DNA from: Vicinamibacterales bacterium
GTDB lineage: Bacteria > Acidobacteriota > Vicinamibacteria > Vicinamibacterales > JAMQPK01
DNA length: 64,000 bases
Assembly (NCBI GenBank): GCA_035937795.1
Contig: DASZHO010000200.1
Coordinates: forward strand, 8,323 to 72,322
Reading direction: 5' to 3'
Shown here piece after piece: positions 1 through 40,947 of this stretch. Below the pieces are notes generated by a model. It did not search any database, had not been told where the DNA came from, and saw nothing but the letters and a program-made list of their open reading frames with translations. Each line of letters starts with the position of its first letter. Position 1 is the stretch's first letter. The translations under genes were made by a program, and so were the position numbers.

Positions 1-602
1 GCCTCCTGCTGGGCCGGATGGAATTCGGTCCCCGCGCCCTCGGCGCCCGTTCCATCATCGGCGATCCCCGATCCCCGCGGATGCAGTCGGTGATGAACCT
101 GAAAATCAAGTTCCGCGAGTCGTTCCGGCCGTTTGCTCCTTCGGTCCTTCGCGAGCATGTGCGCGACTGGTTCGATCTCGACCGGGAAAGTCCCTATATG
201 CTGCTCGTTGCCGACGTGCTGCCGGGAAGGCGGATCCCCGTGCCATCTGAAACGCAGGCATTGTGGGGCATCGAGCAGGTGAACGTACCGCGGTCGACGA
301 TTCCGGCGGTCACGCACGTCGATTACTCGGCTCGGATTCAGACCGTCCGCCGCGAGCTGAACCCGGAGTACTACGACATCATCGACGCGTTCTACCAGCG
401 CACGGGCTGTCCGGTCATCGTTAATACGTCGTTTAATATTCGCGGTGAGCCGATCGTGTGCACGCCGGAGGATGCCTACCGCTGTTTCATGCGAACGAAC
501 ATGGACGCGCTCCTGCTCGGTCGTTTCATTCTTGAGAAAGGGCAGCAGACGCCGCTTGTGGAAGATGATTCGTGGAAGGCGCACCTGACGCATGCGGACT
601 GA
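1..602 (+). CDS. Carbamoyltransferase (NodU/CmcH family), C-terminal part; 5' end lies outside the window
   Basis: Frame is open from the window edge (the ATG at 18 is internal). Translation RMQSVMNLKIKFRESFRPFAPSVL...IPAVTHVDYSARIQTV...GCPVIVNTSFNIRGEPIVCTPEDAYRCF matches the conserved C-terminal carbamoyltransferase domain as I remember it. Confidence 0.85.
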   Translation, partial: LLLGRMEFGPRALGARSIIGDPRSPRMQSVMNLKIKFRESFRPFAPSVLREHVRDWFDLDRESPYMLLVADVLPGRRIPVPSETQALWGIEQVNVPRSTIPAVTHVDYSARIQTVRRELNPEYYDIIDAFYQRTGCPVIVNTSFNIRGEPIVCTPEDAYRCFMRTNMDALLLGRFILEKGQQTPLVEDDSWKAHLTHAD

Positions 603-610
603 TCCGCCGA

Positions 611-1585
611 ATGCCCACCCCATCCTCGCGCACGCACGTCCTGTTCTCAATCGTCTTGCTGCTCTGTTCTCTGGCACTCGCGATTGGTGCCGGCGAGGTG
701 ATCCTGCGCGTCAAGAACAGCTCGATGAAGACCTACGACATCGAGATGTGGCGGTACGCGAAAGACCTCAAGGTTCGCAGCGACGACCCCGCGCTCGATT
801 TCGATCACGTGAAGTCCCGGTCGAGCGTGCTCCAGGGGGTCACGATCCGCCTGAACGAGTGGGGCCTGCGCGGCGGCCCCGTCGAGCCGCTGCCGCCCGG
901 CGGGCGCCGGATCCTGTTTCTCGGTGGGTCGATCGCGCTCGGATGGGGCGTGCCCGAAGACGACACGGTGGAAGCGCGTCTCGAGCGGCATCTGCGCAAG
1001 AGCGGGCAGGCGGTGCAGGTGCTCAATGGCGGAGTGGGCAACTACAATGCCAAGCGCTACGTATCCCGGTTCTTCAAGGAGCTCGCCGGACTGCGGCCCA
1101 CGGACATCGTCGTCCACTACTTTCTTCGTGACGCCGAAGACCTGCCGCCCGGCGGCAACAACGTGGTCCTTCGTAACAGCGAGTTGGCGGTCACCCTGTG
1201 GATCGCGTACCACCGGCTCTTCGACAAGGCCGGTGAGGGGAGCCTGGTGGACCACTATCGATCGGTGTACCAACCCAACGCGCCGGGGTTTATCGAGATG
1301 CAGGCCAGCCTGGCGAAGCTCGCCGAGTACGCGCGGGCCAACAACATCCGGCTCTACCTGGCGATGACGCCCGATGTACACAACCTGGTCGACTACAAGT
1401 TCGGCTTCGTGCACGACACCATGCGCGAGATCGCCCAGCGCGCCGGTTATACCTACATCGACCTCCTGCCGGCCATGATGGGTCGGCCGGCAGAAGGGAT
1501 GTTCGCGATGCCCGGCGACCCTCATCCCAATGCGCTCGGTCATCAGCTGATGGCCGACGCGATCTTTCCCGTGCTTTCGCAGTAG
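611..1585 (+). CDS. SGNH/GDSL-family hydrolase or acyltransferase with N-terminal membrane anchor (AlgJ/AlgX/PatB-like partner of the adjacent MBOAT)
   Basis: ATG at 611 (the ORF opens at GTG 572, overlapping the upstream stop). Hydrophobic N-terminus VLFSIVLLLCSLALAIGAG; ILFLGGSIALGWG (Ser block), GGVGNYN, C-terminal GDPHPNALGH (Asp-x-x-His block). Confidence 0.75.
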   Translation: MPTPSSRTHVLFSIVLLLCSLALAIGAGEVILRVKNSSMKTYDIEMWRYAKDLKVRSDDPALDFDHVKSRSSVLQGVTIRLNEWGLRGGPVEPLPPGGRRILFLGGSIALGWGVPEDDTVEARLERHLRKSGQAVQVLNGGVGNYNAKRYVSRFFKELAGLRPTDIVVHYFLRDAEDLPPGGNNVVLRNSELAVTLWIAYHRLFDKAGEGSLVDHYRSVYQPNAPGFIEMQASLAKLAEYARANNIRLYLAMTPDVHNLVDYKFGFVHDTMREIAQRAGYTYIDLLPAMMGRPAEGMFAMPGDPHPNALGHQLMADAIFPVLSQ

Positions 1586-1589
1586 CCCA

Positions 1590-2987
1590 GTGCTCTTCAG
1601 CTCGCCGACATTTTTCGTCTTCTTCGGCGTCTATCTCTGTTGCCACCTCCTCGTTCCGGCGCGCTATCGGGTCTACCTGATCATCGTCGGCAGCGCGATC
1701 TTCTATTCGTGGTGGAAAGTCTCGTACACGTGGCTGCCTTTCGTGCTGATGGCCACGGCCTACGGAGGGGTGCAGTGGATGGAACACGGCCCCGATCCCT
1801 TGGCCCGCAAGCGACGGGCGGCGGCGACCATCGTCTTGCTGTTCATGCCCTTGCTCATATTCAAGTACACGAACTTCTTCTACCGCGACGTGCTGGGGCC
1901 CCTGTTTGGCTGGCAGGGCACGCTGCTGAACCTGGCACTGCCGCTCGGCGTGTCGTTCGTCACATTCACCTTGACCGCCTTTGTCGTCGACATTTACACG
2001 CGCAAGTACCCGAGCGTGCCGGCCGCATCGACGACGCTGGCATACGTGCTGTTCTTTCCGCACCTGATCGCGGGACCGATCCTGCGTCCCAACGAGCTCG
2101 TGCCACAACTCGAGCATCCGAGGCGCCGGCCGATTCGTAGATTTGCGGTCCCGGTCTCCATCTTCACGCTCGGCCTCGTGAAGAAGCTCGTGTTCGCCGA
2201 CCCGATCGCAGAGGTCGTCGACAGTATCTACGCTCAGTCGAACGGCGCGATCACTGGACCAACCGCGCTGCTCGCGATTTACGGGTTCGCGGTCCAGATC
2301 TATTGTGACTTCAGCGGCTACACCGACATGGCGATCGGGTTGGCCCTTCTACTGGGAGTGCGCCTGCCGAACAACTTCCTCCGCCCTTACGGCGCAGTGT
2401 CGATCGTGGAATTCTGGAGACGGTGGCACATCACGCTGTCGTTCTGGCTCCGTGACTATCTCTACATCCCTCTCGGGGGCAGCCGGAAGGGCCCACTGCT
2501 TCAGGCCCGGAACACCCTGGTCACGATGGTGCTCGGCGGCTTATGGCATGGCGCGAACTGGACATTTGTCGTCTGGGGATTCCTGCACGGCCTCAGTGTG
2601 GCCACCCTTCACATGATCGACGGGATTACCGGGCGGGCCCGCCTGGTGCCGAGGTGGTTCGGCGTCATCCTGACGTTTCACTTCGTCACGATTCTCTGGG
2701 TATTCTTTCGGGCGCCCAATCTGAGACACGCCCTCCAGATCCTGTCGGCGGCGGCCTTTGGTGGCAACTGGACCACGACAGCAACACTCGTGCGGGGCAA
2801 TCTGTTTGTGGTCGGTCTCATCACGCTGTTTGCCTTCGGGCATCGCTTCGACGATCACCGCCGCGTCAGATTGCTGGTGCGCTACCTGCGTCCGGAAGTG
2901 CTATGGCCAATCCTGCTGTTCCTCTGGATAACGGCCATCACCGTCAGCCAGGGGAGTTCCGCGAAGTTCATCTACTTCGACTTCTGA
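1590..2987 (+). CDS. MBOAT-family membrane-bound O-acyltransferase (AlgI/DltB/PatA-like)
   Basis: GTG start gives MLFSSPTFFVFF, a typical MBOAT N-terminus. FWRRWHITLSFWLRDYLYIPLGG and LWHGANWTFVVWGFLHG (conserved His region); polytopic. Confidence 0.9.
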   Translation: MLFSSPTFFVFFGVYLCCHLLVPARYRVYLIIVGSAIFYSWWKVSYTWLPFVLMATAYGGVQWMEHGPDPLARKRRAAATIVLLFMPLLIFKYTNFFYRDVLGPLFGWQGTLLNLALPLGVSFVTFTLTAFVVDIYTRKYPSVPAASTTLAYVLFFPHLIAGPILRPNELVPQLEHPRRRPIRRFAVPVSIFTLGLVKKLVFADPIAEVVDSIYAQSNGAITGPTALLAIYGFAVQIYCDFSGYTDMAIGLALLLGVRLPNNFLRPYGAVSIVEFWRRWHITLSFWLRDYLYIPLGGSRKGPLLQARNTLVTMVLGGLWHGANWTFVVWGFLHGLSVATLHMIDGITGRARLVPRWFGVILTFHFVTILWVFFRAPNLRHALQILSAAAFGGNWTTTATLVRGNLFVVGLITLFAFGHRFDDHRRVRLLVRYLRPEVLWPILLFLWITAITVSQGSSAKFIYFDF

Positions 2988-3104: not shown

Positions 3105-4280
3105 ATGCCAACTGATTCTCCGAACGCCCTACCCGAACGCTCCGCATGGCGCCGGGTGGCGACCGGCTGTACAACAGCAGCCGTGCTCGCCTGGCTACTG
3201 CTCGTGCTGCGGGATCAGTACGGCGTCAGATCGTTGCAGGCGTTCAACCAGGTCAGCTTCGACGAGCTATTCCTCGCCTCGATCGCCGGGGCAGGAGTCG
3301 CGCGAGCGCTTGCCCGTCGGACCGCCGCCGAGGGCCGCATGTTCGCGCTCCGGCTTGTTCTCCTGGTCGGGATGACCGTCGTCGCACTTGTCTCGACCGA
3401 ATACTTCGCACGATTTCGGTTTCGGCAGGCGCGCACGAGCCAGAATGCTGGAGACTACATCGCGCGGACGAGCGCCTGGTCGCCGGGGCCGTCCAATAGC
3501 CTCGGATTTCGCGACCGGGACGTTCCACCCCGGTCTGCCGCTCGATATCGCATTGTCGTCGTTGGCGACTCGTTCACGTGGGGCCAGGGCATCGAGCGGG
3601 CCGAACGGTTCTCGGATCTGCTCGAGCACTTTCTCGGTCCTCGATACGAGGTGTTCAACTTCGCCCTTCCAGGCGACAAAATGCCCGAGCATTTGACCCG
3701 GCTCACTCAGGCGCTGGCGGTGTCACCCGACTTCGTACTGCTCCAGCTCTACCCCAACGACTTCGAGACACCGGAGATGGAGCGCCCGCGCCCGTATCCG
3801 TTGCTGCCAGACCCCCTCGACAGCCGGCTGGGCGGGGCGTCGCTCCTCTACGGGCTGACGCTCGGCCAGTGGGCACACTTGCAGGAGATTGCCGGGGTTT
3901 CTGAAGGGTACACGCATTACATGGAACGTAATCTCCGCGATGGCAATGCTCCAAATGCCCGCGAAGCGTTCGGTCAGCTCCGCGAATTCTTCGTCCGCGC
4001 GCGCGCCGCCGGCGTGCTGGCTGGCGAGGTCCTGTTTCCCGCGACCGATGCTTCCGGTCCAAACGGGACGGGTTATCCCTTCGGCTACCTGCACGACGCC
4101 GTCCGGCAAGTATGCAAGGATGAAAAAGTGACGTGCCTCGATCTCCTTCCGCTGTTCTCGACCTTTCGCGATCCTCGGGCCGCATGGGTGAGCCCGTTCG
4201 ACGCCCATCCGAATGCCATGGCGAACCGCCGTGCGGCGTACGAGATCTTGAGAGCGTTCGGCTCCGTGTGGCAGCGCTGA
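3105..4280 (+). CDS. SGNH/GDSL-family hydrolase, membrane anchored (second copy)
   Basis: ATG 3105; N-terminal hydrophobic segments; IVVVGDSFTWGQG (Ser block) and FDAHPNAMANR (Asp-x-x-His block). Confidence 0.75.
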   Translation: MPTDSPNALPERSAWRRVATGCTTAAVLAWLLLVLRDQYGVRSLQAFNQVSFDELFLASIAGAGVARALARRTAAEGRMFALRLVLLVGMTVVALVSTEYFARFRFRQARTSQNAGDYIARTSAWSPGPSNSLGFRDRDVPPRSAARYRIVVVGDSFTWGQGIERAERFSDLLEHFLGPRYEVFNFALPGDKMPEHLTRLTQALAVSPDFVLLQLYPNDFETPEMERPRPYPLLPDPLDSRLGGASLLYGLTLGQWAHLQEIAGVSEGYTHYMERNLRDGNAPNAREAFGQLREFFVRARAAGVLAGEVLFPATDASGPNGTGYPFGYLHDAVRQVCKDEKVTCLDLLPLFSTFRDPRAAWVSPFDAHPNAMANRRAAYEILRAFGSVWQR

Positions 4281-4291: not shown

Positions 4292-6580
4292 GTGTATTTC
4301 TCTAATCGCTCGACACGCGGTCGTGCTCTGCTGGGCGCGGCCACATTGCTGCTCGCCCTCCTCGCAATTCTCCGAGCGCTCGACCCGCTGCCTGAAGGGC
4401 TGTACGCGATCTATTTCTCGGACGCCAACTGGAGTTCGTCCCGGGCACGGTCGCGGATTGAGCCCAGCCCATCCACCGACAGCCTCCTCGAGGCATGGGG
4501 CCCCAGCCGCCCACCTGAGGTGTTCAGCACGATCTGGACTGGCTCCTTCATCGCCTTGCGAGAGGGCACGTATACCTTCGGCACGCGCTCCGATGACGGA
4601 GCGTGGGTCTACGTGGACGGGCAACTGGTCGTCGACGACGGAGGACGGCATTCGGCGCTCGTCGCCACGGGGCGCGTACATCTCGACCAGGGCGTCCATG
4701 CGATTTTCATCAAGTATTTTCAGGATGGCGGGTCGTTCCATTTCGATCTGTTGTGGGCTCGCGACGCGGCTCCGCTCGAGCTGATGCCCGCGTGGGCGCT
4801 GTCGGCACGCCACGTGAATTTCTCACGCTTCCTGGCGAGCGTCGTTGTGAGGCGCGCATGGGCCGCGGTCGTCGTGCTTTGGGTCGTTGGGCTTGCGGTC
4901 GTCGGTGTCGCCTGGCTGCGGCGATTTTTGATGCGATGGATCAGTCTCCGCAAAGATGATCCCGTCTCCCTTGTCCTGGTCGGCGTGATTATCGGCTCGT
5001 GCGCGCTCAATCTCGGGGGCGTCTGGTGGGGTCTCCCAGGCAGCTGGGCCGGCGACGAGTTCGCGTCGCCGGCCGTGCTCGAAGGGTTAGCGAAGCGCTT
5101 CACGGGCGGGTGGTTCGACAAGTATCCGCCATTTCATTTTTACGTCTTGAGCGCGGTGTACAGCCCGTGGCTCCTCCTGAAATCGCTCCGGTTGATTCGC
5201 GTCTCCGATACTTTTGAGTTCGGAGCACTGCTCCTGCTGGGTCGATTGACCAGTGTGATCGCGGGAGCCGGCACTCTGATAGCGGTATACGTGTGCGGTG
5301 CCGATGCCTTCGGCAAACGCGCGGGCCTGTTTGCGGCCGCGACGCTTGCAGTACTGACGCCGTTCCTGTACTTCGCCAAGACGGCGAATGTGGAGGCTCC
5401 GTACGTCTTCTGGTTTGCGTTATCGCTGGTCTTCTACGTGCGGTTCGCGCGCACGGACACTCTCAGAGACGCCGTTCTGTTCTCGGTCGCCACGACGCTG
5501 GCAGTTTGCACCAAGGACCAGGCCTACGGGTTGTACCTGCCGGTGCCATTCGTGATCGCGTATCAGGGCTGGCGGTCGAATTGTGAGCGGCGGCGTTCGC
5601 ACCCCTTGCTGCGAGGCGTGCTCGCCAATGGAAGACTGGGCCTGGCGATGGTCACGGGCGCAGCCCTGTTCGTTGCGTGTTACCAGATACCATTCAATAC
5701 AGCGGGATTCATCAGCCACGTCCGTTACATCACCGGTCCGGGCAGCCAGCCATATCGCATGGTGGAGGGAACGCTTGGCGGACGGCTGACGCTGCTCCGG
5801 TTGGCGGCCGGCCTCGATGAAATGGCGTGGGGCTGGCCGATGTGCCTCGTCTGCCTGATCGGAATGGTCGCGGCCGTAAAGGATTCGCGGACGCGACGAA
5901 GCGCTGTCTACCTGCTGCTCATGGCGATGGGATACTACATCGGCTTTATCGACGTGATCTTGTACGTGTACGATCGGTTTCTCCTTCCGATCTACCTGAT
6001 GCAGTCGCTTTTCGCTGGGATCGCGTTCGATAAATTTCTTCGATCGCCCGGAGGCGTCCGGCAGATCCCGCGCATCGCGCTCGTCGCCACGGTTTTCGTG
6101 TATACGTTCCTGTATGCGGCAACCGTCGACGTGCTCATGATTCGCGACTCCCGCTATACCGTCGAGCGGTTGCTCGCCGCTCGCGTAGGCCCGGATCGTC
6201 TCGTTGGAACGATGTTTCCCGTCACTGTCCTTCCCAGGCTCGGTGGGCTTCACTCGATGGACATCGGCACGATCGACGCCTTGCGGCAGAATGCGCCCGC
6301 CGCGTATATTCTCAATGCCGACTACGCTCGCGCCGTCTCCAGGGACAGTCCGCTTGGCCGCCTCATTGCCGGACTGCAACAGGAGACGCTCGGGTACCGG
6401 CTGGTCTTTCGTTACCGTTCACCGGCGCCGTGGCCGTGGCTGCCGGCTCCGCACCACGATCTGGTTGGCCCGCGCCTCGAGACCGCAGCGTATTCTGAGG
6501 TGCGCAACATCAACCCCACCATCGAGATCTACAGCCGCGAGAGCGGCGGTGCCGTGTCACCACCCACCGCTCAACGCTGA
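4292..6580 (+). CDS. PA14-domain / GT-C-like (PMT_2/ArnT-type) polytopic membrane protein
   Basis: GTG 4292. Signal-anchor LLGAATLLLALLAILRAL, then a PA14-like block (YFSDANW...TIWTGSFIALREGTYTFGTRSDDGAWVYVDGQLVVDDGG...IFIKYFQDGG). More than 10 hydrophobic segments follow, with WAGDEF and FDKYPPFHFY (DKPPL-like loop motif). Function is inference. Confidence 0.65.
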   Translation: MYFSNRSTRGRALLGAATLLLALLAILRALDPLPEGLYAIYFSDANWSSSRARSRIEPSPSTDSLLEAWGPSRPPEVFSTIWTGSFIALREGTYTFGTRSDDGAWVYVDGQLVVDDGGRHSALVATGRVHLDQGVHAIFIKYFQDGGSFHFDLLWARDAAPLELMPAWALSARHVNFSRFLASVVVRRAWAAVVVLWVVGLAVVGVAWLRRFLMRWISLRKDDPVSLVLVGVIIGSCALNLGGVWWGLPGSWAGDEFASPAVLEGLAKRFTGGWFDKYPPFHFYVLSAVYSPWLLLKSLRLIRVSDTFEFGALLLLGRLTSVIAGAGTLIAVYVCGADAFGKRAGLFAAATLAVLTPFLYFAKTANVEAPYVFWFALSLVFYVRFARTDTLRDAVLFSVATTLAVCTKDQAYGLYLPVPFVIAYQGWRSNCERRRSHPLLRGVLANGRLGLAMVTGAALFVACYQIPFNTAGFISHVRYITGPGSQPYRMVEGTLGGRLTLLRLAAGLDEMAWGWPMCLVCLIGMVAAVKDSRTRRSAVYLLLMAMGYYIGFIDVILYVYDRFLLPIYLMQSLFAGIAFDKFLRSPGGVRQIPRIALVATVFVYTFLYAATVDVLMIRDSRYTVERLLAARVGPDRLVGTMFPVTVLPRLGGLHSMDIGTIDALRQNAPAAYILNADYARAVSRDSPLGRLIAGLQQETLGYRLVFRYRSPAPWPWLPAPHHDLVGPRLETAAYSEVRNINPTIEIYSRESGGAVSPPTAQR

Positions 6581-6613: not shown

Positions 6614-7879
6614 TCAGTTCGAGCGCAAGCGCTGCCGCACTTGGAGGCCCAACAGCGTCACGGTCACGGCCTCCGCCAGCACCGTGGCCCATGCCGCGCC
6701 GCGAATACCCCATGGCGAAATGAGCAGCATGTTGAGTGCAACGTTGACGCCGAGGCCGATCACGGTCGTCACGAACAGGCGGCGATCGAGGTTGACTGAG
6801 ATCGCCACCGCATGAAGGATCCATGTGCAGAATACGAACACCGATCCTCCCGCAAGCACGCGGAGCGGAGCCGCAGCCGGCGTGTAGCTCTCGCCGAAGA
6901 GGACGGTGACAGCGAGAGGCGCCCCCCATACCATGGCGGCGCCGAGCAGCACCCCCAGGGCGGCCGAGGCGCCTATTCCCCACATCATCAGCCCACGATG
7001 GGCGCGTCGATCTTGCACGAAGAGGAACGACAACTTTGGGGTCAACACGGCTGCCAGCACCGACGGCGCATAGGTCAGACCTTCGTAGATCCGGTACGAC
7101 GCCGCATACCACCCTGTCTCGGCGTCGCTCCGCATGAGGCCCAGAATGACGGTGTCGATGTAGTTGTACATGTTCAGCGCGAGCATGAAAAAGCCGAGGG
7201 GCAGCGCCGAAGCCTGCAGTCCACGCCACGCCTCGCGATCGAATTGGGGACGCATCGAGCCGAGGGTGGGCCTGAGCAGCACGCCGATGACGAATAACAT
7301 GAGAAGACGCGCTGCAACGAACGCAAGGGCGAGGCCCGTCAAGCCATAGCCCCCCCACAATGCGGACCCGCCGAGGATGAGGAGCAACAGCCGATCGGCG
7401 ACCACGACGACGGCTTCCAGGTCGAACCGATCGAGTCCCTGGAGAAGCCCGCGTGCGGTCAGTAGATAAGAGCGCACCGCGGCTGAAATTCCGAGCAGGT
7501 AACAAAGACGGATGACCACGGGGTCCGACCGCAGGATTGGCGTAATGGCGACGAGGAGAAGCAGAGCCCCCGCCACCCAGACGAGCTTCAGCCCAAGGAC
7601 GTGCCGGAACAACTGCGCGGCTGTTTCCTTCTGCCTCGCCACGGCGCGCGCGGTGACTTGACTCAGACCGACGTCCATGATGGTTTCGAGGATGGTGGTC
7701 AGCGCGAGCGCAAACGAAAAGCGGCCGTAATCAGCCGCATCGAGAAAGCGGCCGGCCGCCATCAACAGGACCAGCAGGAGCACGGCGCTGCCGGCGGTCA
7801 CGGTTGCATAGCCGCTGCTGACGAGAAGCGGAAAGCGATCTCGGATTTTCGCGGCGCTCACGCCTCCGCTCAAGGTCAT
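6614..7879 (-). CDS. Wzx-like oligosaccharide flippase (MOP-superfamily polysaccharide biosynthesis protein)
   Basis: ATG 7879 overlaps the upstream stop (ATGA). About 12 TM segments; N-terminal LLVSSGYATVTAGSAVLLLVLLMAAGRFLDAADYGRFSFALAL is typical of Wzx/RfbX-type flippases. Confidence 0.8.
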   Translation of the reverse strand: MTLSGGVSAAKIRDRFPLLVSSGYATVTAGSAVLLLVLLMAAGRFLDAADYGRFSFALALTTILETIMDVGLSQVTARAVARQKETAAQLFRHVLGLKLVWVAGALLLLVAITPILRSDPVVIRLCYLLGISAAVRSYLLTARGLLQGLDRFDLEAVVVVADRLLLLILGGSALWGGYGLTGLALAFVAARLLMLFVIGVLLRPTLGSMRPQFDREAWRGLQASALPLGFFMLALNMYNYIDTVILGLMRSDAETGWYAASYRIYEGLTYAPSVLAAVLTPKLSFLFVQDRRAHRGLMMWGIGASAALGVLLGAAMVWGAPLAVTVLFGESYTPAAAPLRVLAGGSVFVFCTWILHAVAISVNLDRRLFVTTVIGLGVNVALNMLLISPWGIRGAAWATVLAEAVTVTLLGLQVRQRLRSN

Positions 7880-12889: not shown

Positions 12890-12919
12890 ATCTATCCGTG
12901 TCTCATCTATCCGTGTCTC
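12890..12919. repeat. Perfect 15-bp tandem direct repeat ATCTATCCGTGTCTC x2 in a divergent control region
   Basis: Read directly: 12890-12904 and 12905-12919 are identical. The repeat lies in the AT-rich gap between ATG 12862 (minus) and the first plausible plus-strand start, GTG 12913. Confidence 0.9.
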
Positions 12920-20812: not shown

Positions 20813-20834
20813 GTGAAGGCGGAGTCGCCTTCAC
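20813..20834 (+). promoter_or_regulatory. Perfect 9-bp-stem hairpin in the predicted 5' UTR
   Basis: GTGAAGGCG (20813-20821), loop GAGT, CGCCTTCAC (20826-20834). No U-tract follows. Confidence 0.4.
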
Positions 20835-20865
20835 TCACCAACAATTCGTCACACGTTCTCTTGCG

Positions 20866-26066: not shown

Positions 26067-26077
26067 GCTGCCTTCCT

Positions 26078-34038: not shown

Positions 34039-35218
34039 ACCTCACTTGCGTCTGGACCTCCAGGGCATGCTCCGCCGCGTAAGGCAGCGTGACGAGCACG
34101 AGAAACAACATCAGGAATTCCGAGTCGCCGAAATTGTATTCGAACAATCCGGCGGCCAACATCGCCGCCAGGGCTGCCACTGCGGCGGCTGGAAACATCG
34201 GCTCTGCTGCGCGTCGTAGTTTTTTCGTCAGATCCAGAGCCAGCGAGAGCACGAACCACAGCCAGGCGCCAAGAGCGGGCAAGCCCCGCTCGGCCGCGAT
34301 CTGGACCAGCACGTTGTGGAGATGCTGGTTGTTGTGGAAAGGATCGGTCGGGGCACGGTATTCAGCGTAACGTTCCTCGACCATGTTGGGGCCAAGGCCC
34401 ACCAGCGGATGCGCCGCGACCATGCGCGCCCCCTCGCGCAGCATGGCGATCCGTTCGATATTGGTCACATCTACGGGATCGAAGATCGAATAGAAGCGAT
34501 GCGTGACGCCGTGGGGGGCGAGCGCGAAGAACGCCGCCGCCAGAAATGGAAGGACGACGAGCAGCCGGACGTCCTTCAGGCTGAGTAACACTCCGAGTCC
34601 GGCGAGCGTCCCAATCCAGGCGCTGCGGGTAAAGGTCAGCGTCAGGGCGACGAGCAGCAGCGACAGACTCAGCGCCGGCCAGAGTCGCCGTCGGCCGAAC
34701 AACAGCTGGGCGGCCGCCGCGCAAACGACGAGCATCATCAGCCCGGAGTAGGTCATGTAGTGGCCCATGACGCCGTGGGGTCTCCGGGCCAGATTGTCGT
34801 ATCCCATCAGGGCGTACTGCAGAATTCCGATCGTCGCGCTGGCCGCGCCCACGACAATGATCACCGTGAGCACCGCCCTGGCGCGCCGTCCTCTGGCAAG
34901 CTGATACACCGCCGGGACCACCAGAAAGAGCACAAGCTGCTTGCACGCCATGAGGCTCACGCGCGGGTCGCTGGAGAAACCGGTCGACACCACCGTCGCG
35001 ACAGCGTAGGCAATCAGCGGAACGAACATCGCCGGGGCCTCGATTCGCCGGCGTTCCCCGAACAGCCAGATCACCCAGAGCACGAGCAGCACCGCCAGCA
35101 GGAGTTCTGCGGCAGCAATCGAGACCTGGACCGCCGCCGCGAAACCGAGGAGCACCCCGGCCCTCGCGAGCTCGAATCTGTCCTGATAAGGCGCGTCTGT
35201 GTTGGCTGTGTGCATCAA
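34004..35218 (-). CDS. O-antigen ligase / Wzy_C-family membrane protein
   Basis: 10-12 TM segments. LTFTRSAWIGTLAGLGVLL resembles the Wzy_C loop motif. Start is TTG 35218 or ATG 35215. The 3' end overlaps the convergent P3 gene by 35 nt. Confidence 0.75.
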   Translation of the reverse strand: MMHTANTDAPYQDRFELARAGVLLGFAAAVQVSIAAAELLLAVLLVLWVIWLFGERRRIEAPAMFVPLIAYAVATVVSTGFSSDPRVSLMACKQLVLFLVVPAVYQLARGRRARAVLTVIIVVGAASATIGILQYALMGYDNLARRPHGVMGHYMTYSGLMMLVVCAAAAQLLFGRRRLWPALSLSLLLVALTLTFTRSAWIGTLAGLGVLLSLKDVRLLVVLPFLAAAFFALAPHGVTHRFYSIFDPVDVTNIERIAMLREGARMVAAHPLVGLGPNMVEERYAEYRAPTDPFHNNQHLHNVLVQIAAERGLPALGAWLWFVLSLALDLTKKLRRAAEPMFPAAAVAALAAMLAAGLFEYNFGDSEFLMLFLVLVTLPYAAEHALEVQTQVRSSPLVEAFQTR

Positions 35219-35242: not shown

Positions 35243-36226
35243 TCAGTCCGGCGAGGCCGATGGGATCGGCTGCGGCGCGGGCCCGAGGTAGTAGAGAGCC
35301 CCGGGAAGGTTGGCGAGAATCCCCAGCGCCACAAAGAGCACCGAGAGCGCGAACGCCTCGGCGCCGGACGTGCCGGCTCGCCTGAACAGCCAGACGAACG
35401 CCGCCTGACTCGTACCGATGCCATTGGCGGTGATCGGCAGGAACATGATCAGAAGAATCAGCGGAATGAAGGCGAAATAGGTGAGGCTGGGCTGCTGAAT
35501 CCCGAGCGCCACTCCGAGGTAATACGCCTGGAGCACGCGCAGGATTTGCACGGTCACCGAGCCGACGAGCACCGCGCTGAGCGCGTCGTGGTGCTTCGCA
35601 TACCGTCTGATAGAGGCAATCAGCGAGCCCGCCGCCTGGCGCAGCCGCACCCACGGAATTCGCGCAAACAGGAGTTCCGCGAACGCATCGGCCGCGTTGC
35701 TGAAAATCAGCAGCGCCGCAATCACGCACGCGGCGCTCGTGACGCCCAGCGCCAGCATCACGCCGGGGTTCGCAGCCAGATCGCGGGCGATGGCCAGGCC
35801 GGCCAGCGCCATGATCAACACCGACAGGACGCCGAGCATCCGGTCCACGAAGACCGACGCCATGGCGTCGGCGATGGGAACGCGGTGATTGGACAGGCTG
35901 TACGCGCGAACGGCGTCGCCGCCGATACTCGCCGGCAGAAATGTCCCGACGAACGTGCTGACAAAGAAAATTCGAAGCACGGCGCGCCATGGGGGAAAGT
36001 GCCCTCCTTCGAGCGGCCGCAGGAGGACAAACCAGCGATACGCCATCAACGTGCGATCGGCGAGAACCAGCAGAACCGCGACGAGCAGTGGCGCGACCGA
36101 GGCTTGCGTGCAGATCCGCCACACATCCTGGGGATTGCTTTTCCAGAGGGTGTAGCCGACAAGAACAGCCGCGAAGATGAGGCGAGAAATACCGTTGAGG
36201 GTTGGCCGCTTCACACGCCGCCGCAT
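35243..36226 (-). CDS. UPF0104 / MprF-type flippase-like transmembrane protein
   Basis: ATG 36226; polytopic, 327 aa. FAAVLVGYTLWKSNPQDVW...LADRTLMAYRWFVLLRP is typical of the lysyl-PG-synthase TM (flippase-like) family, from memory. Confidence 0.7.
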   Translation of the reverse strand: MRRRVKRPTLNGISRLIFAAVLVGYTLWKSNPQDVWRICTQASVAPLLVAVLLVLADRTLMAYRWFVLLRPLEGGHFPPWRAVLRIFFVSTFVGTFLPASIGGDAVRAYSLSNHRVPIADAMASVFVDRMLGVLSVLIMALAGLAIARDLAANPGVMLALGVTSAACVIAALLIFSNAADAFAELLFARIPWVRLRQAAGSLIASIRRYAKHHDALSAVLVGSVTVQILRVLQAYYLGVALGIQQPSLTYFAFIPLILLIMFLPITANGIGTSQAAFVWLFRRAGTSGAEAFALSVLFVALGILANLPGALYYLGPAPQPIPSASPD

Positions 36227-36259: not shown

Positions 36260-37462
36260 ATGCACATCCTGATGATCGCGCCCGAGCCGTTCTTCGAGCC
36301 GCGCGGCACTCCATTCAGCGAGTATCACCGCATCCGGGCGCTCGCCGATCTCGGGCACACCATCGACCTCGTCACCTATCCCTTTGGAAGCGACGTGGAG
36401 TTGCCGGGGCTCAGGATTTTTCGCGCCGCGCGCCCGCCATTCGTCACGCGCGTGAAGATCGGCCCGTCGGCGGCGAAGCTCTTTCTCGACCTGACGCTGG
36501 CGTGGACGGCGCTGAATCAAGCACGACGCGGACGCTACCACGCGGTGCACTCGCACGAAGAAGGCGCCGCCATCGGCATCCCGATCTCGGCGGCGCTCGG
36601 CATCCCGCATCTCTACGACATGCACTCGAGTCTGCCGCAGCAGCTCGAGAACTTCGCCTTCAGCGACTCGGCCGTGTTGCGCTGGCTGTTCGCGCGCCTG
36701 GAGCGGATCGCGGTTCGCCGTTCGCGCGTCACGATTGTGATTTGCCCCCACCTCCAGGAAACCGCCAGAAAAGTCGCGCCGGATGCGCAGACCATCCTGA
36801 TTGAGAATGCGCCGGGATCGGGGGACATGCCGGAGGCCGGCGCCGGCCTTCATGTCCGGCGTTCGTTCGGCGTCGGCGACTCGGCGCCGATGGTGTTGTA
36901 CACCGGCACCTTCGAGTCTTATCAGGGACTCGACTTGCTGTTCGCGGCGGCGAAAGCGGTGCTCGCCGATCGCCCTGACGTGAGGTTCGTGCTCGCCGGC
37001 GGGAAGCCCGAGCAGGTGGCGCGCGCCAGAGCGCAGGCCGCCGGACTGGGCGCCGAGGGGATCATCTTCGCAGGAGAGCAACCCTCGGAGGCGATTCCCG
37101 GCTTCCTGGATGCCGCCGACGTGCTCGTCTCGCCCCGTCGAACGGGGACGAACACTCCGCTGAAAATCTATCAATACTTGCGATCGGGCCGGGTCATTGT
37201 GGCCACGCGGCTGCTCACCCACACTCAGGTCCTGTCGGATGAGGTGGCGATTCTTACCGACCCCGCGCCGGCCGACTTCGCACGAGGCATCCTGCGCGCC
37301 GTCAATGAACCGGAGCTCGCAGCACGGCTCGGCCAGGCAGCCAGGCGCCTCGCGGAGACGCGCTACACCTACGACGCCTATCTCCAGCGGACGCGCGAAG
37401 CGTGCGCCGCGTTGAGCCTCCCAATCAAAAGGGGACGGGAGTCGTTTTCCCGCGCGCTGTGA
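36260..37462 (+). CDS. Glycosyltransferase family 4
   Basis: ATG 36260 (the 900-aa ORF 34760..37462 is open upstream only because of high GC). MHILMIAPEPFFEPRGTPFS...; VSPRRTGTNTPLKIYQYLRSGRVIVAT. Confidence 0.85.
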   Translation: MHILMIAPEPFFEPRGTPFSEYHRIRALADLGHTIDLVTYPFGSDVELPGLRIFRAARPPFVTRVKIGPSAAKLFLDLTLAWTALNQARRGRYHAVHSHEEGAAIGIPISAALGIPHLYDMHSSLPQQLENFAFSDSAVLRWLFARLERIAVRRSRVTIVICPHLQETARKVAPDAQTILIENAPGSGDMPEAGAGLHVRRSFGVGDSAPMVLYTGTFESYQGLDLLFAAAKAVLADRPDVRFVLAGGKPEQVARARAQAAGLGAEGIIFAGEQPSEAIPGFLDAADVLVSPRRTGTNTPLKIYQYLRSGRVIVATRLLTHTQVLSDEVAILTDPAPADFARGILRAVNEPELAARLGQAARRLAETRYTYDAYLQRTREACAALSLPIKRGRESFSRAL

Positions 37463-38217
37463 AGCGGGGCCCGGAACCTGCCTCTCATTATTCATACACC
37501 GCGTATGCCGATCCGGCGATGGCGTCCGGCTTCGATGCGGGGCGCTTCGGCGGACCCATCGGCCGGCTGCTGCTCGAAGACCAGGAACGCGCGCTCTTCG
37601 CGTTCCTCGGCGAGGTGTCCGGACGGCGCGTGCTCGACGTCGGCACCGGGACCGGACGCGCAGCCATCGCGTTGTCGAAGCGTGGCGCAACGGTCACCGG
37701 CGTCGACGCCTCGGGCGAGATGTTGAAGGTTGCGAGGCGGCGTGCGGCCGAGGAAGGGGTCTCGATCGAATTTCTTGAAGGCGATGCCCATGCACTGGCC
37801 TGGCCGGACCGCGCCTTCGACGCCGTCGTCTGCTTCCGCCTGCTGATGCACGTGCCGGCGTGGCGGACCGCCATGGCCGAGCTCTGCCGCGTCGCAGACA
37901 GAGGGGTGATCTTCGATTACCCGTCGATCGCGAGTATCGCGGCTCTGCAAGCCCTGTGGCGCCGCGCGGCGCTGAAAATGGGCAGCCACGTGGAAGCCTA
38001 CCGGGTGTTCAGCGCGGGCGAGGTCCGCGACGAGCTGGCGTCCCATGGCTTTCGGATTGTCGGCGTCGAGCGTCAATTCGTGTTGCCGATCGCGCTGCAC
38101 AAGCTGGTTGGATCGCCGCGTTTCACTCGAAGTGTCGAAGGCGCATTGTCCGCCGGCGGGTTGCTCCGCGTGGCGGGTTCGCCGGTTACCGTGGCGGCCG
38201 AGCGGTGCGCGTCCTAG
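37459..38217 (+). CDS. Class I SAM-dependent methyltransferase
   Basis: GTG 37459 overlaps the upstream stop (GTGA). VLDVGTGTGRAAIALSKRG (motif I); FDAVVCFRLLMHV. Confidence 0.8.
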   Translation: MKRGPEPASHYSYTAYADPAMASGFDAGRFGGPIGRLLLEDQERALFAFLGEVSGRRVLDVGTGTGRAAIALSKRGATVTGVDASGEMLKVARRRAAEEGVSIEFLEGDAHALAWPDRAFDAVVCFRLLMHVPAWRTAMAELCRVADRGVIFDYPSIASIAALQALWRRAALKMGSHVEAYRVFSAGEVRDELASHGFRIVGVERQFVLPIALHKLVGSPRFTRSVEGALSAGGLLRVAGSPVTVAAERCAS

Positions 38218-39185
38218 TCACAGGGGCGACCGGGTTTACCGGAGGTCATCTCGCCAGAAGCCTTGCGCGGCGCGGATACCAGGTCCGCGGCCTCGCACGA
38301 ACCGCGCCGGCGGCGGCGGATCTGAGTGCCGCGGGCATCGAGCCGGCCGTCGGGGTGCTGGAGGACGGCGCCGCTGTGGCGCGTGCAGTCAAGGACGTTG
38401 ATGTCGTCTATCACATCGCCGCGATTTACAGGCAGGCGGGGATTCCCGCCGCGCGGTACCGCGCCGTCAACGTGACGGCGGTAAGCGATCTGATTGACCT
38501 GGCTGCCGCGGCCGGCGTGACGCGTCTGGTGCACTGCAGCACCGTCGGGGTCCACGGCGACGTCGAGCATCCGCCGGCCGGCGAAGAGGCGCCGCTCAAT
38601 CCGGGCGACGTGTATCAGCGCACCAAGGTCGAAGGCGAGCGCGTCGCGCGCGCTGCCGCGGCGCGGACCGGTCTGGCGGTCACCATCGCGCGACCGACCG
38701 GAATCTACGGACCCGGCGATCGGCGGCTCCTCAAACTGTTCAGGGGCGTGTCTCGGAGGCGCTTTGTCATCCTCGGGTCTGGAGACATCTTCTATCATCT
38801 GACGTACATCGACGATCTCGTGGAAGGCCTCCGGCTGTGTGGGGAAGTGCCGGCTGCCGCCAACCGCACCTACATCCTGGCTGGAGGAGAGGTCACCACG
38901 CTGAACGAGCTCGTCGCCATCATCGCCGAGCAAGCCCACGTCGCGCCGCCGTCTCTGAAGCTGCCCGTGTGGCCCGTGTGGCTTGCCGGCGCCGCCTGCG
39001 AGGCGATCTGCGTCCCGTTCGGAGTCGAGCCGCCCCTCTATCGCCGTCGCGTGGACTTCTTTACGAAAAGCCGCGCCTTCGATATCACGCGCGCGCGGCG
39101 GGAGCTGGGGTACGCTCCGCAGGTCGGGCTGCGCGAGGGGATCCGCAAAACCTTGGAATGGTACCGGGAGCATCGATGGCTGTGA
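38205..39185 (+). CDS. NAD-dependent epimerase/dehydratase (extended SDR)
   Basis: GTG 38205. VLVTGATGFTGGHLARSL; DVYQRTK (YxxxK). The ORF track opens far upstream at 37860. Confidence 0.85.
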   Translation: MRVLVTGATGFTGGHLARSLARRGYQVRGLARTAPAAADLSAAGIEPAVGVLEDGAAVARAVKDVDVVYHIAAIYRQAGIPAARYRAVNVTAVSDLIDLAAAAGVTRLVHCSTVGVHGDVEHPPAGEEAPLNPGDVYQRTKVEGERVARAAAARTGLAVTIARPTGIYGPGDRRLLKLFRGVSRRRFVILGSGDIFYHLTYIDDLVEGLRLCGEVPAAANRTYILAGGEVTTLNELVAIIAEQAHVAPPSLKLPVWPVWLAGAACEAICVPFGVEPPLYRRRVDFFTKSRAFDITRARRELGYAPQVGLREGIRKTLEWYREHRWL

Positions 39186-39907
39186 CCGGCGTCCCGCGGG
39201 CGCAGGACGATCTGTTCAAGCCGGGGATGACCGCGCGCCAGAGATATTCCGCGCTCGTCGTCGGTAAGAGCGGCTGGCTCGACCTGCTCGCTTACGAGGC
39301 CGTCGTGCTGATGACGCAGAGCGTCCCGGGTGCGCTCGGCCTCGCGCTGCGCCAGACCTTCTATCCGTCGCTCCTCGGATCGTGCGGGCGCAATGTGGTC
39401 TTCGGTCAGAATGTCGTGCTGCGGCACCCGCACAAGGTTCGCATCGGCGACAACGTGGTCATTGACGACAACTGCCTCGTCGACGCAAAAGGATCGACCA
39501 ACTCGGGCATTCGGATTGGAACGGGCGTGTTCATCGGCCGGAATTCGATCCTTTCCTGCAAGAACGGCGACATCGAGATCGGCGACGGCGCGAACATCGG
39601 CTTCAATTGCGAGATCTTTTCCGCCAGCCGGGTGACGATCGGCGAACGGACGCTGATAGCCGCCTACTGCTACCTGGTAGGGGGAGATCACGATTTTGCC
39701 GATCCGGGGAAACCGATACTCGACCAGCCGCGGACATCGGCGGGGATCAGCCTGGGAGCCGGCGCGTGGCTGGGGGCCGGCGTGACCGTGCTGGACGGTG
39801 TCACGATCGGATCGGGCGCTGTCGTCGGCGCGGCGGCCCTGGTGCGCGAGTCGGTGCCCGACAACGCCACCGCGGCGGGTATCCCGGCGCGGATTATTCG
39901 CCCATGA
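39176..39907 (+). CDS. Left-handed beta-helix (hexapeptide-repeat) acetyltransferase
   Basis: ATG 39176. Hexapeptide repeats IGDNVVIDDNCLV, IGTGVFIGRNSIL, IGDGANIGFNCEI, LGAGAWLGAGVTVLDGVTIGSGAVVGAAALV. Confidence 0.8.
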   Translation: MAVTGVPRAQDDLFKPGMTARQRYSALVVGKSGWLDLLAYEAVVLMTQSVPGALGLALRQTFYPSLLGSCGRNVVFGQNVVLRHPHKVRIGDNVVIDDNCLVDAKGSTNSGIRIGTGVFIGRNSILSCKNGDIEIGDGANIGFNCEIFSASRVTIGERTLIAAYCYLVGGDHDFADPGKPILDQPRTSAGISLGAGAWLGAGVTVLDGVTIGSGAVVGAAALVRESVPDNATAAGIPARIIRP

Positions 39908-40947
39908 GCCGAGTCGCGGTCGTGACATCCAGCCCGTTGTTTGTGGAGGGTGGCCATCTGGTGATGGCGCGTTCGCTTGTTCGGGCGCTTCGCGAAGCCG
40001 GCCATGAATCGCAGCTCGTGATCACGCCACAGAACCGGTTCGGCCGTCAGGCGTCTGCGTACCTCGCAGCCTGGCTGACCGATCTGGGCGTCGGCCACGA
40101 TGGGCAGAAAGTCAACCAGGTTATCTCCCTGCGCTATCCGAGCTACGCCGTGCGTCACCCGTTCCATGTCTGCTGGCTCAACCACACCATGCGCGAGTAC
40201 TACGATCAGTGGGACGCCTTCAGCGCGCCCCTGAGCTGGAAGGGGCGGCTGAAGGAGAGCGCGCGCCGGCTGCTCATCCACCGGGTCGATCGACGGCTCC
40301 TCACGAAGAACGTGCGGAAGCTGTTCACGCTCTCTCGCACCGTGCAGGCCCGGCTGACGCGCTGGGGGTCGATCGGCTCCGAGGTGCTGTATCCTCCGCC
40401 GCCGCAGCGAGCCTACCGGTGCGAGGCTTACGGTGACTATATTTTTGCCGTTTCCCGTCTCGCGCCACTCAAGCGGCTGTCGCTCCTGATAGAGGCGCTG
40501 GCCGATCCGGCGGCGGAAGGGATTCGCTGCGTGATTGCCGGAGAAGGCGAAGAGCGCGCTATCCTGGAGCAGGCGATCTCCGCGCGAGGCCTGTCGCCGC
40601 GGGTCAAGTTGATCGGCCGTATAGACGACCATCAGCTTGTCGACCATCTGTCGCGGTGCCGGGCCGTGTGTTTCCCCCCCTTTGATGAAGACTACGGATT
40701 CGTGACCGTCGAGGCGTTCGCGTCGCGCAAACCGGTCATTACCTGTACCGACAGCGGCGGCGCCGCCGAGCTGGTCGCGGACGGCGTGACCGGCAGAGTG
40801 TGCGCGCCGCGGCCGCAGGCGCTCGCCGTGGCGCTGCGTGAGGTGATGGAGGATGCCGGCCTGGCGGAGCGGATGGGGGGCGCCGGCCTCGAGCGCGCGT
40901 CCCGATTGACGTGGCCTGCCGCGCTCGGCCAACTACTGATGGAGTGA
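39904..40947 (+). CDS. Glycosyltransferase family 4
   Basis: ATG 39904 overlaps the upstream stop (ATGA). FPPFDEDYGFVTVEAFASRKPVITCTDSGGAAELV (EX7E region). Confidence 0.8.
   Translation: MSRVAVVTSSPLFVEGGHLVMARSLVRALREAGHESQLVITPQNRFGRQASAYLAAWLTDLGVGHDGQKVNQVISLRYPSYAVRHPFHVCWLNHTMREYYDQWDAFSAPLSWKGRLKESARRLLIHRVDRRLLTKNVRKLFTLSRTVQARLTRWGSIGSEVLYPPPPQRAYRCEAYGDYIFAVSRLAPLKRLSLLIEALADPAAEGIRCVIAGEGEERAILEQAISARGLSPRVKLIGRIDDHQLVDHLSRCRAVCFPPFDEDYGFVTVEAFASRKPVITCTDSGGAAELVADGVTGRVCAPRPQALAVALREVMEDAGLAERMGGAGLERASRLTWPAALGQLLME

Follow-up and report, generated by a model that had tools for sequence, protein, structure and literature searches.

Membrane glycosyltransferases of the GT-C type (GT-Cs) in well-studied diderm bacteria mostly make single decorations, such as Gtr side-chain glucosylation and ArnT modification of lipid A, whereas polymer-building arrays of GT-Cs have, to our knowledge, been described chiefly in mycobacteria and related bacteria. 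Here we analyze a locus of 41 kb that clusters several polytopic GT-C and GT-C-like proteins, located at the start of a 64,000-nucleotide stretch of DNA (the window; GC content ~63%) from a Vicinamibacterales bacterium of the Acidobacteriota (GenBank assembly GCA_035937795.1, contig DASZHO010000200.1, positions 8,323 to 72,322 of the forward strand). We propose, with a probability of roughly 0.65, that this is a Vicinamibacterales envelope-glycan locus in which several Gtr/Arn-type modules are stacked on a Wzx-type glycan pathway, a reading that suggests that much of the surface glycan is built outside the cytoplasm.

The closest described three-component systems are Gtr (GtrA/GtrB/GtrC), Arn (ArnC/ArnD/ArnE-F/ArnT), and the GT136 pentofuranose systems (Kelly et al., 2024; PMC11127046). 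Like these systems, the locus combines a family 2 glycosyltransferase (GT2) related to ArnC-type synthases (GT2b), a candidate flippase (I), and polytopic GT-C or GT-C-like transferases, some of which carry domains of carbohydrate-binding type; and, like them, it has a portable module, a sugar-donor cassette that swaps its polytopic partner between genomes. Unlike these systems, it contains up to seven GT-C-like genes rather than the one GT-C of each prototype module (PMC11127046), its flippase candidate is of the LPG_synthase_TM/TIGR00374 type rather than GtrA, SMR, or MATE, its donor is apparently supplied by a cassette that resembles a heptose pathway and includes a GLF-like mutase, and most of its GT-C families are unannotated.

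Two further systems offer parallels. In the arabinogalactan/lipoarabinomannan machinery of Corynebacterineae (EmbA/B/C, AftA-D, MptA-D, PimE, Ppm1/DPPR synthase), an array of GT-Cs elaborates one envelope heteropolysaccharide outside the cytoplasm from polyprenyl-phosphate sugars, and EmbC and AftD carry lectin-like modules. The locus differs in that it belongs to another phylum and to a bacterium that we take to be diderm, contains Wzx and Wzy_C genes, shows no detectable sequence similarity to the Emb, Aft, and Mpt families, and has in the window no gene found for DPPR synthase/UbiA or DprE1/E2. In the extension pathway of the endoplasmic reticulum (ER) lumen (ALG3/9/12/6/8/10, DPM1/ALG5, RFT1, STT3), cytoplasmic GT4-type enzymes are followed by a MOP-family flippase, several GT-Cs then use polyprenol-phosphate monosaccharides supplied by a DPM1-like GT2, and the product is transferred en bloc; the likeness is an analogy at the level of pathway logic only. 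Full-text literature searches for LA_3751 (a Leptospira protein to which three of the proteins below are distantly related) and for 'PA14 domain' with 'GT-C' returned no paper, and searches on GT-C with Acidobacteria and on Vicinamibacter with glycosyltransferase returned nothing relevant to this locus. What distinguishes the locus is the number and diversity of unannotated GT-C or GT-C-like families in one diderm locus, the PA14 fusions, the LPG_synthase_TM flippase candidate, and the portable heptose-like donor cassette.

An earlier annotation made from the letters of the window without database searches (the sequence-only reading) had counted eight large polytopic proteins, and all eight open reading frames (ORFs) are present at the coordinates that it gave (A to H; Table 1). 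Public gene calls have the same starts for C (617 amino acids (aa), start 12913), D (563 aa, Joint Genome Institute (JGI) contig L001), F (519 aa; P0121, 100% identical), and G (917 aa; P0241, 99% identical), and GC content at third codon positions (GC3) in the eight ORFs is 0.74-0.79, as for genuine genes in this window. The GT-C fold comprises a polytopic membrane domain of about 8-14 helices, and a crude hydropathy scan (19-residue windows, overlaps left unmerged) yields 9-19 hydrophobic windows for each of A to H, indicating that all eight are polytopic. Seven polytopic proteins of ~490-920 aa are found among ~30 genes in 41 kb, and the only comparable polytopic protein in the remaining 23 kb of the window is HupE/UreJ. 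From this difference in density, together with partial synteny in dozens of genomes, we conclude that the clustering of polytopic genes is not due to chance.

The polytopic proteins are nearly unrelated to one another by BLAST, which detects only the PA14 domains of A and G and a weak match between B and E, indicating that they are not recent paralogues. Only A passes the Pfam model PMT_2 (PF13231; GT39/GT83-type; 39.1 bits vs. a gathering threshold of 26.1); C scores 17.7 bits, under threshold, and B, D, E, F, and G have no PMT_2 match. A contains the motifs GDEF at residue 254 and DKYPP at 276, has orthologues of 42-48% identity in related loci, and has a more distant homologue (32% identity; contig L002) that also contains Pfam PMT. 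We conclude from these matches that A is a PMT_2-type GT-C.

D and F have no Pfam or NCBIfam match, although D has >2700 and F >1200 homologues, mostly in Vicinamibacterales and other Acidobacteriota, and the homologues of F are likewise without Pfam match. AlphaFold2 models of D and F, built on alignments of 45 and 50 sequences, respectively (predicted local distance difference test (pLDDT) 80.8 and predicted TM-score (pTM) 0.85 for D; pLDDT 88.6 and pTM 0.88 for F), each show a bundle of helices and, at the C terminus, a small alpha/beta domain. Comparison with the PDB using Foldseek shows three-dimensional similarity to solved GT-C enzymes in both cases. For D, the top 23 matches are all GT-Cs, with probability 0.99-1.00, and include DPY19, STT3, AglB, AftD (TMq 0.57; the best TM-score among the significant matches), ArnT, AftA, Pmt4, and PglB. 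For F, the top 28 matches are all GT-C-type membrane enzymes, with probability 0.99-1.00, and include PglB, AglB, STT3, DPY19, ArnT, ALG12 (the best TM-score; TMq 0.53, TMt 0.57), AftB, Emb, AftA, and PIG-M. Transporters rank far lower in both lists (probability <=0.35). In the models, the invariant residues D51 of D and D61 of F lie at the start of the first helix after the first transmembrane helix (TM1), where the catalytic acid of GT-Cs is usually located. We conclude, on the basis of these models, that D and F have a GT-C fold.

Profile comparisons place B, C, and E in one unannotated superfamily. Their family profiles match each other with hhalign probabilities of 98-99% (B to E, 98.4-98.8%; C to E, 98.8%), and the family hidden Markov models (HMMs) cross-match. 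The NCBIfam model for the Leptospira LA_3751/LA_3752 family, itself uncharacterized, matches the membrane cores of all three (NF047440; B, 21.2 bits, 1e-4; C, 37.0 bits, 1.8e-9; E, 53.6 bits, 1.6e-14), at scores that, with a cutoff of 200, make B, C, and E distant relatives and not members of that family. Pfam scans of 111 members of the B, C, and E families gave no meaningful match except sub-threshold PMT_2 in C: the 15 members of the B family scanned had none, 24 members of the E family had none at E<=0.01, and 52 more had only scattered sub-threshold matches at E<=0.05. The E family comprises 4025 representative clusters (50% identity) at E<=1e-3; when ten representatives were looked up, four were named, all as 'hypothetical protein', and six had no name. 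In a plasmid collection searched by tblastn, the sole match to the E membrane core was a 'hypothetical protein' of the Thermomicrobium roseum megaplasmid (NC_011961.1, 418014-419036; 34.7% identity, E 1e-21), and the E family thus extends to Chloroflexota.

A merged B+C+E membrane-core profile connects the superfamily to the two assigned GT-Cs. In hhalign, the merged profile matches the D family colinearly over 304 columns (85.7%, P 5.4e-6) and the A family over 283 columns (71%, P 3.7e-5), and the alignment with D places IYSIHAPGL of E opposite the invariant YSE.N of D. Within the superfamily, D165, P167, and Y169 of E are invariant in 102 sequences, and D55 and Y59 of C are invariant; B has NQNSRF in place of the GDExxY of C and E, keeps YSDKAPG, and has conserved residues N89-R93 and invariant D117 and D128. 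The motif pair GDExxY...(K/H)APG resembles PDETRY...FEKP of E. coli ArnT at motif level only. In hhalign against the single sequence of E. coli ArnT, all probabilities are <=1.6%, even for the Pfam-positive A; both E and the merged profile nevertheless have their best local match on ArnT residues 28-51, the segment with the DE motif. We conclude that B, C, and E are probably GT-Cs.

Outside the membrane cores, C and E share a C-terminal beta-sandwich domain (13840-14766 in C, 16466-16820 in E; hhalign 98.8%). It is the only part of B, C, and E matched in profile searches of PDB sequences, the matches being solely to de novo designed Ig-like proteins, and it is possibly an undescribed carbohydrate-binding module.

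The catalytic residues of GT-Cs are located just after the first core helix, as is well established (PMC11127046). In that position we find GDEF in A, D55 in C, D51 in D, D165/E166 in E, D61 in F, and a cluster of D/E residues in G, all invariant or near-invariant; the exception is B, with N89-Q90-N91 and D117 and D128. The loop motifs on which the sequence-only reading had based its comparison with PMT_2/ArnT enzymes are likewise present (FDKYPP at A 275, SDKAPG at B 127, IHAPG at E 217; GDE at A 254, C 54, and E 164). The conserved acidic loops are, we infer, periplasmic, and the strict conservation of their residues argues that members of the D, E, and F families are active enzymes.

G is a candidate. 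Its membrane core belongs to a small unannotated family (82 matches; none in the plasmid collection by tblastn), its C terminus has as best PDB match the F5/8 type C (discoidin) module of the GT-C enzyme AftD (9.5e-5), and the loop that comes after its first core helices contains conserved D/E residues. The gene is divergent from that for GT2b, at a distance of 137 bp, and a homologue of G in another glycan locus adjoins a GT9 heptosyltransferase gene and a Wzy_C gene. In hhalign comparisons of single families, F and G matched no other family; F is a GT-C by structure, so a negative hhalign result is uninformative for these families. Context and conserved acidic loop residues thus make G a candidate GT-C and do not establish it as one. 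Taken together, the proposal that all eight polytopic proteins are GT-C-like holds for A (PMT_2), for D and F (structure), and, at the level of class, for H (Wzy_C), is carried for B, C, and E by the merged-profile link to D and A, and fails to find support in the core of G, which has no detectable GT-C similarity.

These assignments bear on whether the locus is an ordinary Wzx/Wzy exopolysaccharide (EPS) or O-antigen cluster, its polytopic proteins being for the most part not glycosyltransferases but polymerases, acyltransferases, transporters, or inactive relatives. Wzx and Wzy_C proteins are indeed encoded (Polysacc_synt 1.3e-25; Wzy_C 6e-19), B to G are without curated family assignment, and the conserved Arg/Asp/His residues and long early loop of G loosely fit the GT-C3 clan of polysaccharide polymerases (PMC10920833). 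However, D and F match GT-Cs that use lipid-phosphate sugars or lipid-diphosphate glycans and match transporters only at low probability, A passes PMT_2, B, C, and E are linked to A and D, and the acidic loop residues are strictly conserved. We regard an ordinary cluster as very unlikely.

The Wzy_C domain is common to WaaL ligases and to PglL/PilO O-oligosaccharyltransferases. By this domain, H is a protein of the ligase or polymerase class, and hhalign of all the other families against H shows no relation. O-antigen ligases have been placed in a GT-C(B) subclass that uses lipid-diphosphate oligosaccharide donors (PMC10920833). The gene for H follows that for the last of three lipoproteins, which, as the sequence-only reading had noted, form a family of their own: they are paralogous (34-51% identity; 51% over 208 aa for lipoproteins 1 and 3), the lipobox is canonical in one, the other two have a Cys motif that resembles a lipobox (ITTAC in lipoprotein 1), and all three have a Ser/Thr/Pro-rich linker directly after the lipobox Cys. 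Such features would be compatible with a locus dedicated to periplasmic protein O-glycosylation, with a lipid-carrier glycan extended by GT-Cs and transferred by H as a PglL-type O-oligosaccharyltransferase or, in a variant, with sugars transferred directly by the PMT-like A, the acceptors being the linkers of the lipoproteins. The PMT_2-type assignment of A, the Wzy_C match of H, the linkers in three of three lipoproteins, and the recurrence of lipoprotein homologues in other genomes, next to the cassette and next to D, all agree with this explanation, but H is indistinguishable from a WaaL ligase or a Wzy polymerase, Ser/Thr/Pro-rich linkers are common in lipoproteins, and a role in glycan binding or as a scaffold would suit Ig-like lipoproteins just as well. 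We consider dedicated protein O-glycosylation improbable.

The donor side of the proposed modules is represented by a cassette of six minus-strand genes that runs from 29845 to 23971 and encodes GT2b, HldE-like, GmhA-like, epimerase, GLF-like, and TIM-barrel proteins. The best NCBIfam matches of GT2b are polyprenyl-phosphate glycosyl synthases (ArnC, 57 bits vs. a cutoff of 529; PpgS; AglJ; Dol-P-hexose transferase; all under cutoff), which is in keeping with the donor supply proposed in the envelope-glycan reading; GT2b shares 27% identity with E. coli ArnC across 221 aa (E 1e-16) and, having no membrane helix, resembles a soluble enzyme of the Ppm1/PpgS type. Two GT2s had been proposed to be DPM1/GtrB/ArnC-like. 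The likeness is borne out for GT2b, and the other (9131-10168), with best NCBIfam matches to MftF and PgaC that are all far under cutoffs, is a generic GT2 that is not specifically DPM1/ArnC-like. The HldE-like protein has its nucleotidyltransferase domain N-terminal (40-172) and its PfkB kinase domain C-terminal (333-478), the reverse of E. coli HldE. The GLF-like mutase encoded in the cassette operon hints at a furanose form of the sugar.

When metagenomes were scanned with the HldE-like protein, 80 contigs were retrieved, and the cassette recurs at 60-85% amino-acid identity in 50-80 of these soil metagenome contigs (L089-L168). A GT2b homologue (63-76% identity) adjoins the HldE-like gene in 50 of the 80, with the rest of the cassette present wherever sequence allowed. 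Where at least 4 kb of sequence is available upstream of GT2b, a polytopic ORF of 650-934 aa lies beside GT2b in 16 of 18 contigs. These neighbors fall into two families that do not occur in the window: X1, which is divergent, and X2, which is co-directional and belongs to the B/C/E superfamily (hhalign 96%, P 4.7e-9). In the window, G, divergent from GT2b, fills the polytopic slot. A homologue of I (44-58% identity) lies directly upstream of the GT2b homologue in 7 of 33 metagenome loci; the I protein of the window is closer to these cassette-associated homologues than to those of core loci (25-29%). Homologues of the Ig-like lipoproteins recur beside the cassette and beside D in other genomes. 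We conclude from these comparisons that the cassette is a portable donor unit with a polytopic partner that is swapped between genomes.

Searching the GTDB species representatives with the D alignment identified 278 loci, and nearly all of the best 80 are from Vicinamibacterales or Acidobacteriota metagenome-assembled genomes (MAGs). A core order, (A) B Wzx GT4 GT2 deacetylase C D, is present within 10 kb of D in ~15-19 Vicinamibacterales genomes, usually followed by the LPG_synthase_TM gene, GT4, methyltransferase, epimerase, and TtcA, and in a second group of related loci E is divergent from D. In most related genomes, two to four of these polytopic families are encoded within 10 kb of D. 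The sequence-only reading could not name the architecture. Clusters of two to four families that recur in this way mark a lineage trait, and the window represents a larger form of that trait rather than a singular case. Compared with related loci, it joins both neighborhood types and has a 16-kb insert between E and the GT4 gene termed GT4b, the insert containing F, two lipoproteins, the sugar cassette, G, the third lipoprotein, H, and I.

Several observations touch on the same neighborhoods. The block at 35243-39185 (LPG_synthase_TM, GT4, methyltransferase, and NAD-epimerase genes) stands next to D in many genomes (L003, L010, L012, and others), and its epimerase and LPG_synthase_TM protein have sub-cutoff matches to HpnA and HpnL, which are models associated with hopanoids. 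In one related genome, D is followed downstream by a 779-aa ORF without Pfam match (L003/L004, 11753-14092, minus strand) that the HMMs of families A to G leave unassigned at E<1e-15 and that may represent another unannotated family. Homologues of D with 45-49% identity occur on MAG contigs labeled Bifidobacterium breve, Bifidobacteriaceae, Acidimicrobiia, and Gemmatimonadetes (L036, L069, L044, and L048), which are probably mis-binned acidobacterial DNA.

The synteny results raise the question of whether the locus is a single expanded system, as the sequence-only reading had proposed. That description is too simple, since the locus is a mosaic of modules found separately elsewhere. In the strongest form of this explanation, independent systems lie side by side (for example, a Wzx pathway for EPS or O-antigen, ArnT-like lipid A/core modification, PMT-like protein O-glycosylation, and a heptose side-chain module), and the high count of GT-Cs is not the mark of a single assembly line. 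The occurrence of the ABCD-type and ED-type neighborhoods in different genomes, the travels of the GT2b cassette with X1 and X2 in 50-80 contigs, the existence of G homologues as orphan genes, and the 16-kb insert in the window all fit such an explanation. On the other hand, the ABCD core, with its interleaved Wzx, GT4, GT2, and deacetylase genes, is syntenic across many species, which argues that at least A, B, C, and D act in one pathway, and Pfam scans show that the modules are contiguous and all glycan-related, with no unrelated genes interposed. Fully independent systems are a possible explanation, to which we give less credence than even odds by a clear measure.

Returning to the envelope-glycan reading, from the gene content, the family and fold assignments, and the synteny we infer a donor type, an order of steps, a periplasmic site of action, and the convergence of all modules on one glycan, as follows. 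Three GT4s and a GT2 would build a lipid-linked oligosaccharide in the cytoplasm, the initiating enzyme being encoded elsewhere, and Wzx would flip it. The GT-C enzymes A to F, and probably G, would then add residues in the periplasm from polyprenyl-phosphate-sugar donors. One donor would be a heptose-related sugar, made by the cassette, loaded on polyprenyl phosphate by GT2b, and possibly flipped by I; G would be the candidate GT-C that uses this donor, forming with GT2b and I a three-component module in the style of Gtr and Arn. The PA14, discoidin, and perhaps C-terminal beta-sandwich domains may hold the growing glycan; accessory carbohydrate-binding modules occur on the GT-Cs EmbC, AftD, and GT136, for which such a glycan-holding role has been described (PMC11127046). 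The MBOAT and SGNH proteins would O-acylate the product, carbamoylation is a possible finishing step, and H would polymerize or ligate the product.

A number of points weigh against this proposal. The links of B, C, and E to A and D are hhalign matches below 95%, and B is without the DE motif. The core of G has no match in Pfam, NCBIfam, or PDB sequences and matches the A to F families at <=3.1% in hhalign, and two further homologues of G stand as orphan genes away from glycan loci. All matches to heptose-pathway models (HldE, GmhA, heptose epimerase) and to ArnC-type models are under NCBIfam cutoffs, so the activated sugar may not be standard ADP-heptose. Pfam scans and a survey of small ORFs in gaps show no GtrA, SMR (ArnE/F), or MATE flippase; I, confirmed as the flippase-like protein that had been noted at its position, is a candidate, and the flipping of polyprenyl-phosphate sugars by LPG_synthase_TM proteins is an assumption. 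As had been noted from the letters alone, no initiating phosphoglycosyltransferase, Wzz, or Wza is detected when all large ORFs in the 64 kb are scanned with Pfam, nor is a Wza/Wzc export pair; these functions may be encoded elsewhere in the genome. Finally, the modules occur separately in other genomes and may serve different acceptors.

Table 1. Genes of the locus: coordinates in the window, strand, and supporting evidence.
Gene product	Coordinates	Strand	Evidence and remarks
Carbamoyltransferase, C-terminal part	18..602	+	Carbam_trans_C 6.3e-67; gene cut by window start
Membrane-anchored SGNH/GDSL hydrolase	572..1585	+	Lipase_GDSL_2 1.5e-11; one N-terminal hydrophobic segment
MBOAT membrane O-acyltransferase	1590..2987	+	Pfam MBOAT 3.2e-33
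Second membrane-anchored SGNH/GDSL hydrolase	3105..4280	+	Lipase_GDSL_2 2.7e-13
A: PA14 lectin-like domain and PMT_2-type GT-C	4292..6580	+	PA14 1.7e-17; PMT_2 39.1 bits
Wzx-type flippase, MOP family	6614..7879	-	Polysacc_synt 1.3e-25
Cytoplasmic GT4 glycosyltransferase	7876..9126	-	Glycos_transf_1 7.9e-34
GT2, generic, one C-terminal hydrophobic segment	9131..10168	-	Glycos_transf_2 2.3e-21
B: polytopic, B/C/E superfamily, probable GT-C	10273..11739	-	NF047440 1e-4; hhalign to E
Polysaccharide deacetylase family protein	11756..12862	-	Polysacc_deac_1 6.3e-12; no obvious signal peptide
C: polytopic, B/C/E superfamily, C-terminal beta-sandwich, probable GT-C	12913..14766	+	NF047440 1.8e-9; hhalign to E
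D: GT-C fold (model), unannotated family	14763..16454	+	AlphaFold2 and Foldseek
E: 880 aa, polytopic, B/C/E superfamily, C-terminal beta-sandwich, probable GT-C	16466..19108	-	NF047440 1.6e-14
F: GT-C fold (model), unannotated family	19142..20701	-	AlphaFold2 and Foldseek
Lipoprotein 1, Ig/fn3-like repeats	20713..21921	+	Ig_Rha78A_N 2.3e-9; probable start near 20866
Lipoprotein 2, same family as lipoproteins 1 and 3	22492..23886	+	Probable start near 22700; lipobox-like ASVAC
Xylose-isomerase-like TIM-barrel protein, last cassette gene	23971..24750	-	AP_endonuc_2 7.9e-18
UDP-galactopyranose-mutase-like flavoenzyme	24774..26120	-	GLF 3.2e-9, NAD_binding_8; TIGR00031 1e-19, under cutoff
NAD-dependent sugar epimerase/dehydratase	26078..27031	-	Epimerase 5.5e-37
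GmhA-like SIS-domain sugar-phosphate isomerase	27028..27612	-	SIS_2 4.6e-16; gmhA 6e-25, under cutoff
HldE-like bifunctional nucleotidyltransferase/sugar kinase	27615..29165	-	rfaE_dom_II 1.7e-25, rfaE_dom_I 9e-10, both under cutoff
GT2b: soluble ArnC/DPM1-like GT2, candidate polyprenyl-phosphate sugar synthase	29132..29845	-	ArnC 1.4e-15
G: PA14, unannotated polytopic core, C-terminal discoidin-like domain; candidate transferase	29982..32735	+	PA14 5e-22
Lipoprotein 3	32881..34038	+	Lipobox FAGC
H: Wzy_C (O-antigen ligase/polymerase/O-oligosaccharyltransferase class)	34004..35218	-	Wzy_C 6e-19, 68.7 bits vs. cutoff 31.7
I: LPG_synthase_TM/TIGR00374 flippase-like membrane protein	35243..36226	-	Pfam 9.8e-35; TIGR00374 74 bits vs. 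43.2
GT4 glycosyltransferase	36260..37462	+	Glycos_transf_1 3.9e-20; conserved in core synteny
S-adenosylmethionine (SAM)-dependent methyltransferase	37402..38217	+	Methyltransf_25 4.2e-25
NAD-dependent epimerase, HpnA-like under cutoff	37860..39185	+	Epimerase 4.7e-36; TIGR03466 158 bits vs. 368
GT4 glycosyltransferase, last locus gene	39607..40947	+	Glycos_transf_1 1.1e-31

The remaining genes fit a glycan locus, and its two lectin-fused polytopic proteins and its Wzx flippase are as the sequence-only reading had described them (Table 1). The first SGNH/GDSL protein and the MBOAT protein form a candidate set for periplasmic glycan O-acetylation. The deacetylase has a match to the PgaB N-terminal domain (5e-19) that is under cutoff. 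Between the genes for lipoproteins 1 and 2, a plus-strand ORF of 179 aa (22160-22699) with coding-like GC3 (0.72) and no Pfam match overlaps the long upstream extension of the lipoprotein 2 ORF. A minus-strand ORF of 481 aa at 36245-37690, Arg-rich and without hydrophobic segments, was rejected as a high-GC shadow ORF; the genuine gene at this position is the antisense GT4 gene on the plus strand (~36260-37462). We place the end of the locus at ~40947 because the PP-loop gene that follows (40911-41765), rejected as a locus member, encodes the tRNA thiolase TtcA (passing its NCBIfam cutoff), downstream of which the rest of the window contains housekeeping genes. A second small GT2 of DPM1/ArnC size (53909-54634, plus strand, 241 aa) lies 13 kb past the locus amid genes for metallo-beta-lactamase-fold proteins.

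The results indicate that the envelope-glycan loci of a soil order that is abundant but has barely been cultured bring together several polytopic GT-C or GT-C-like enzymes; in the window there are seven such proteins, each of them fold-confirmed, probable, or candidate, from families that are mostly unannotated in curated databases. The analysis provides fold-level assignments for two families (D and F), joins three more (B, C, and E) as a superfamily, and defines a portable sugar-donor cassette with a changing polytopic partner. If the assembly-line reading is true, glycan synthesis outside the cytoplasm would have a broader range than is now known, and the locus would offer new GT-C families for CAZy and for glycoengineering. 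A bolder extension, which we regard as speculative and doubtful, is that Vicinamibacterales have their own bacterial equivalent of the pathway in the eukaryotic ER lumen. The glycan would be extended by five or more GT-C families that are unrelated to one another, of which four or five are undescribed, fed by dedicated polyprenyl-phosphate-sugar cassettes, and a Wzy_C enzyme would transfer it en bloc, possibly onto the Ser/Thr/Pro-rich lipoproteins of the locus. If that extension were true, periplasmic GT-C chemistry would be the main builder, and not a decorator, of a diderm envelope glycan.

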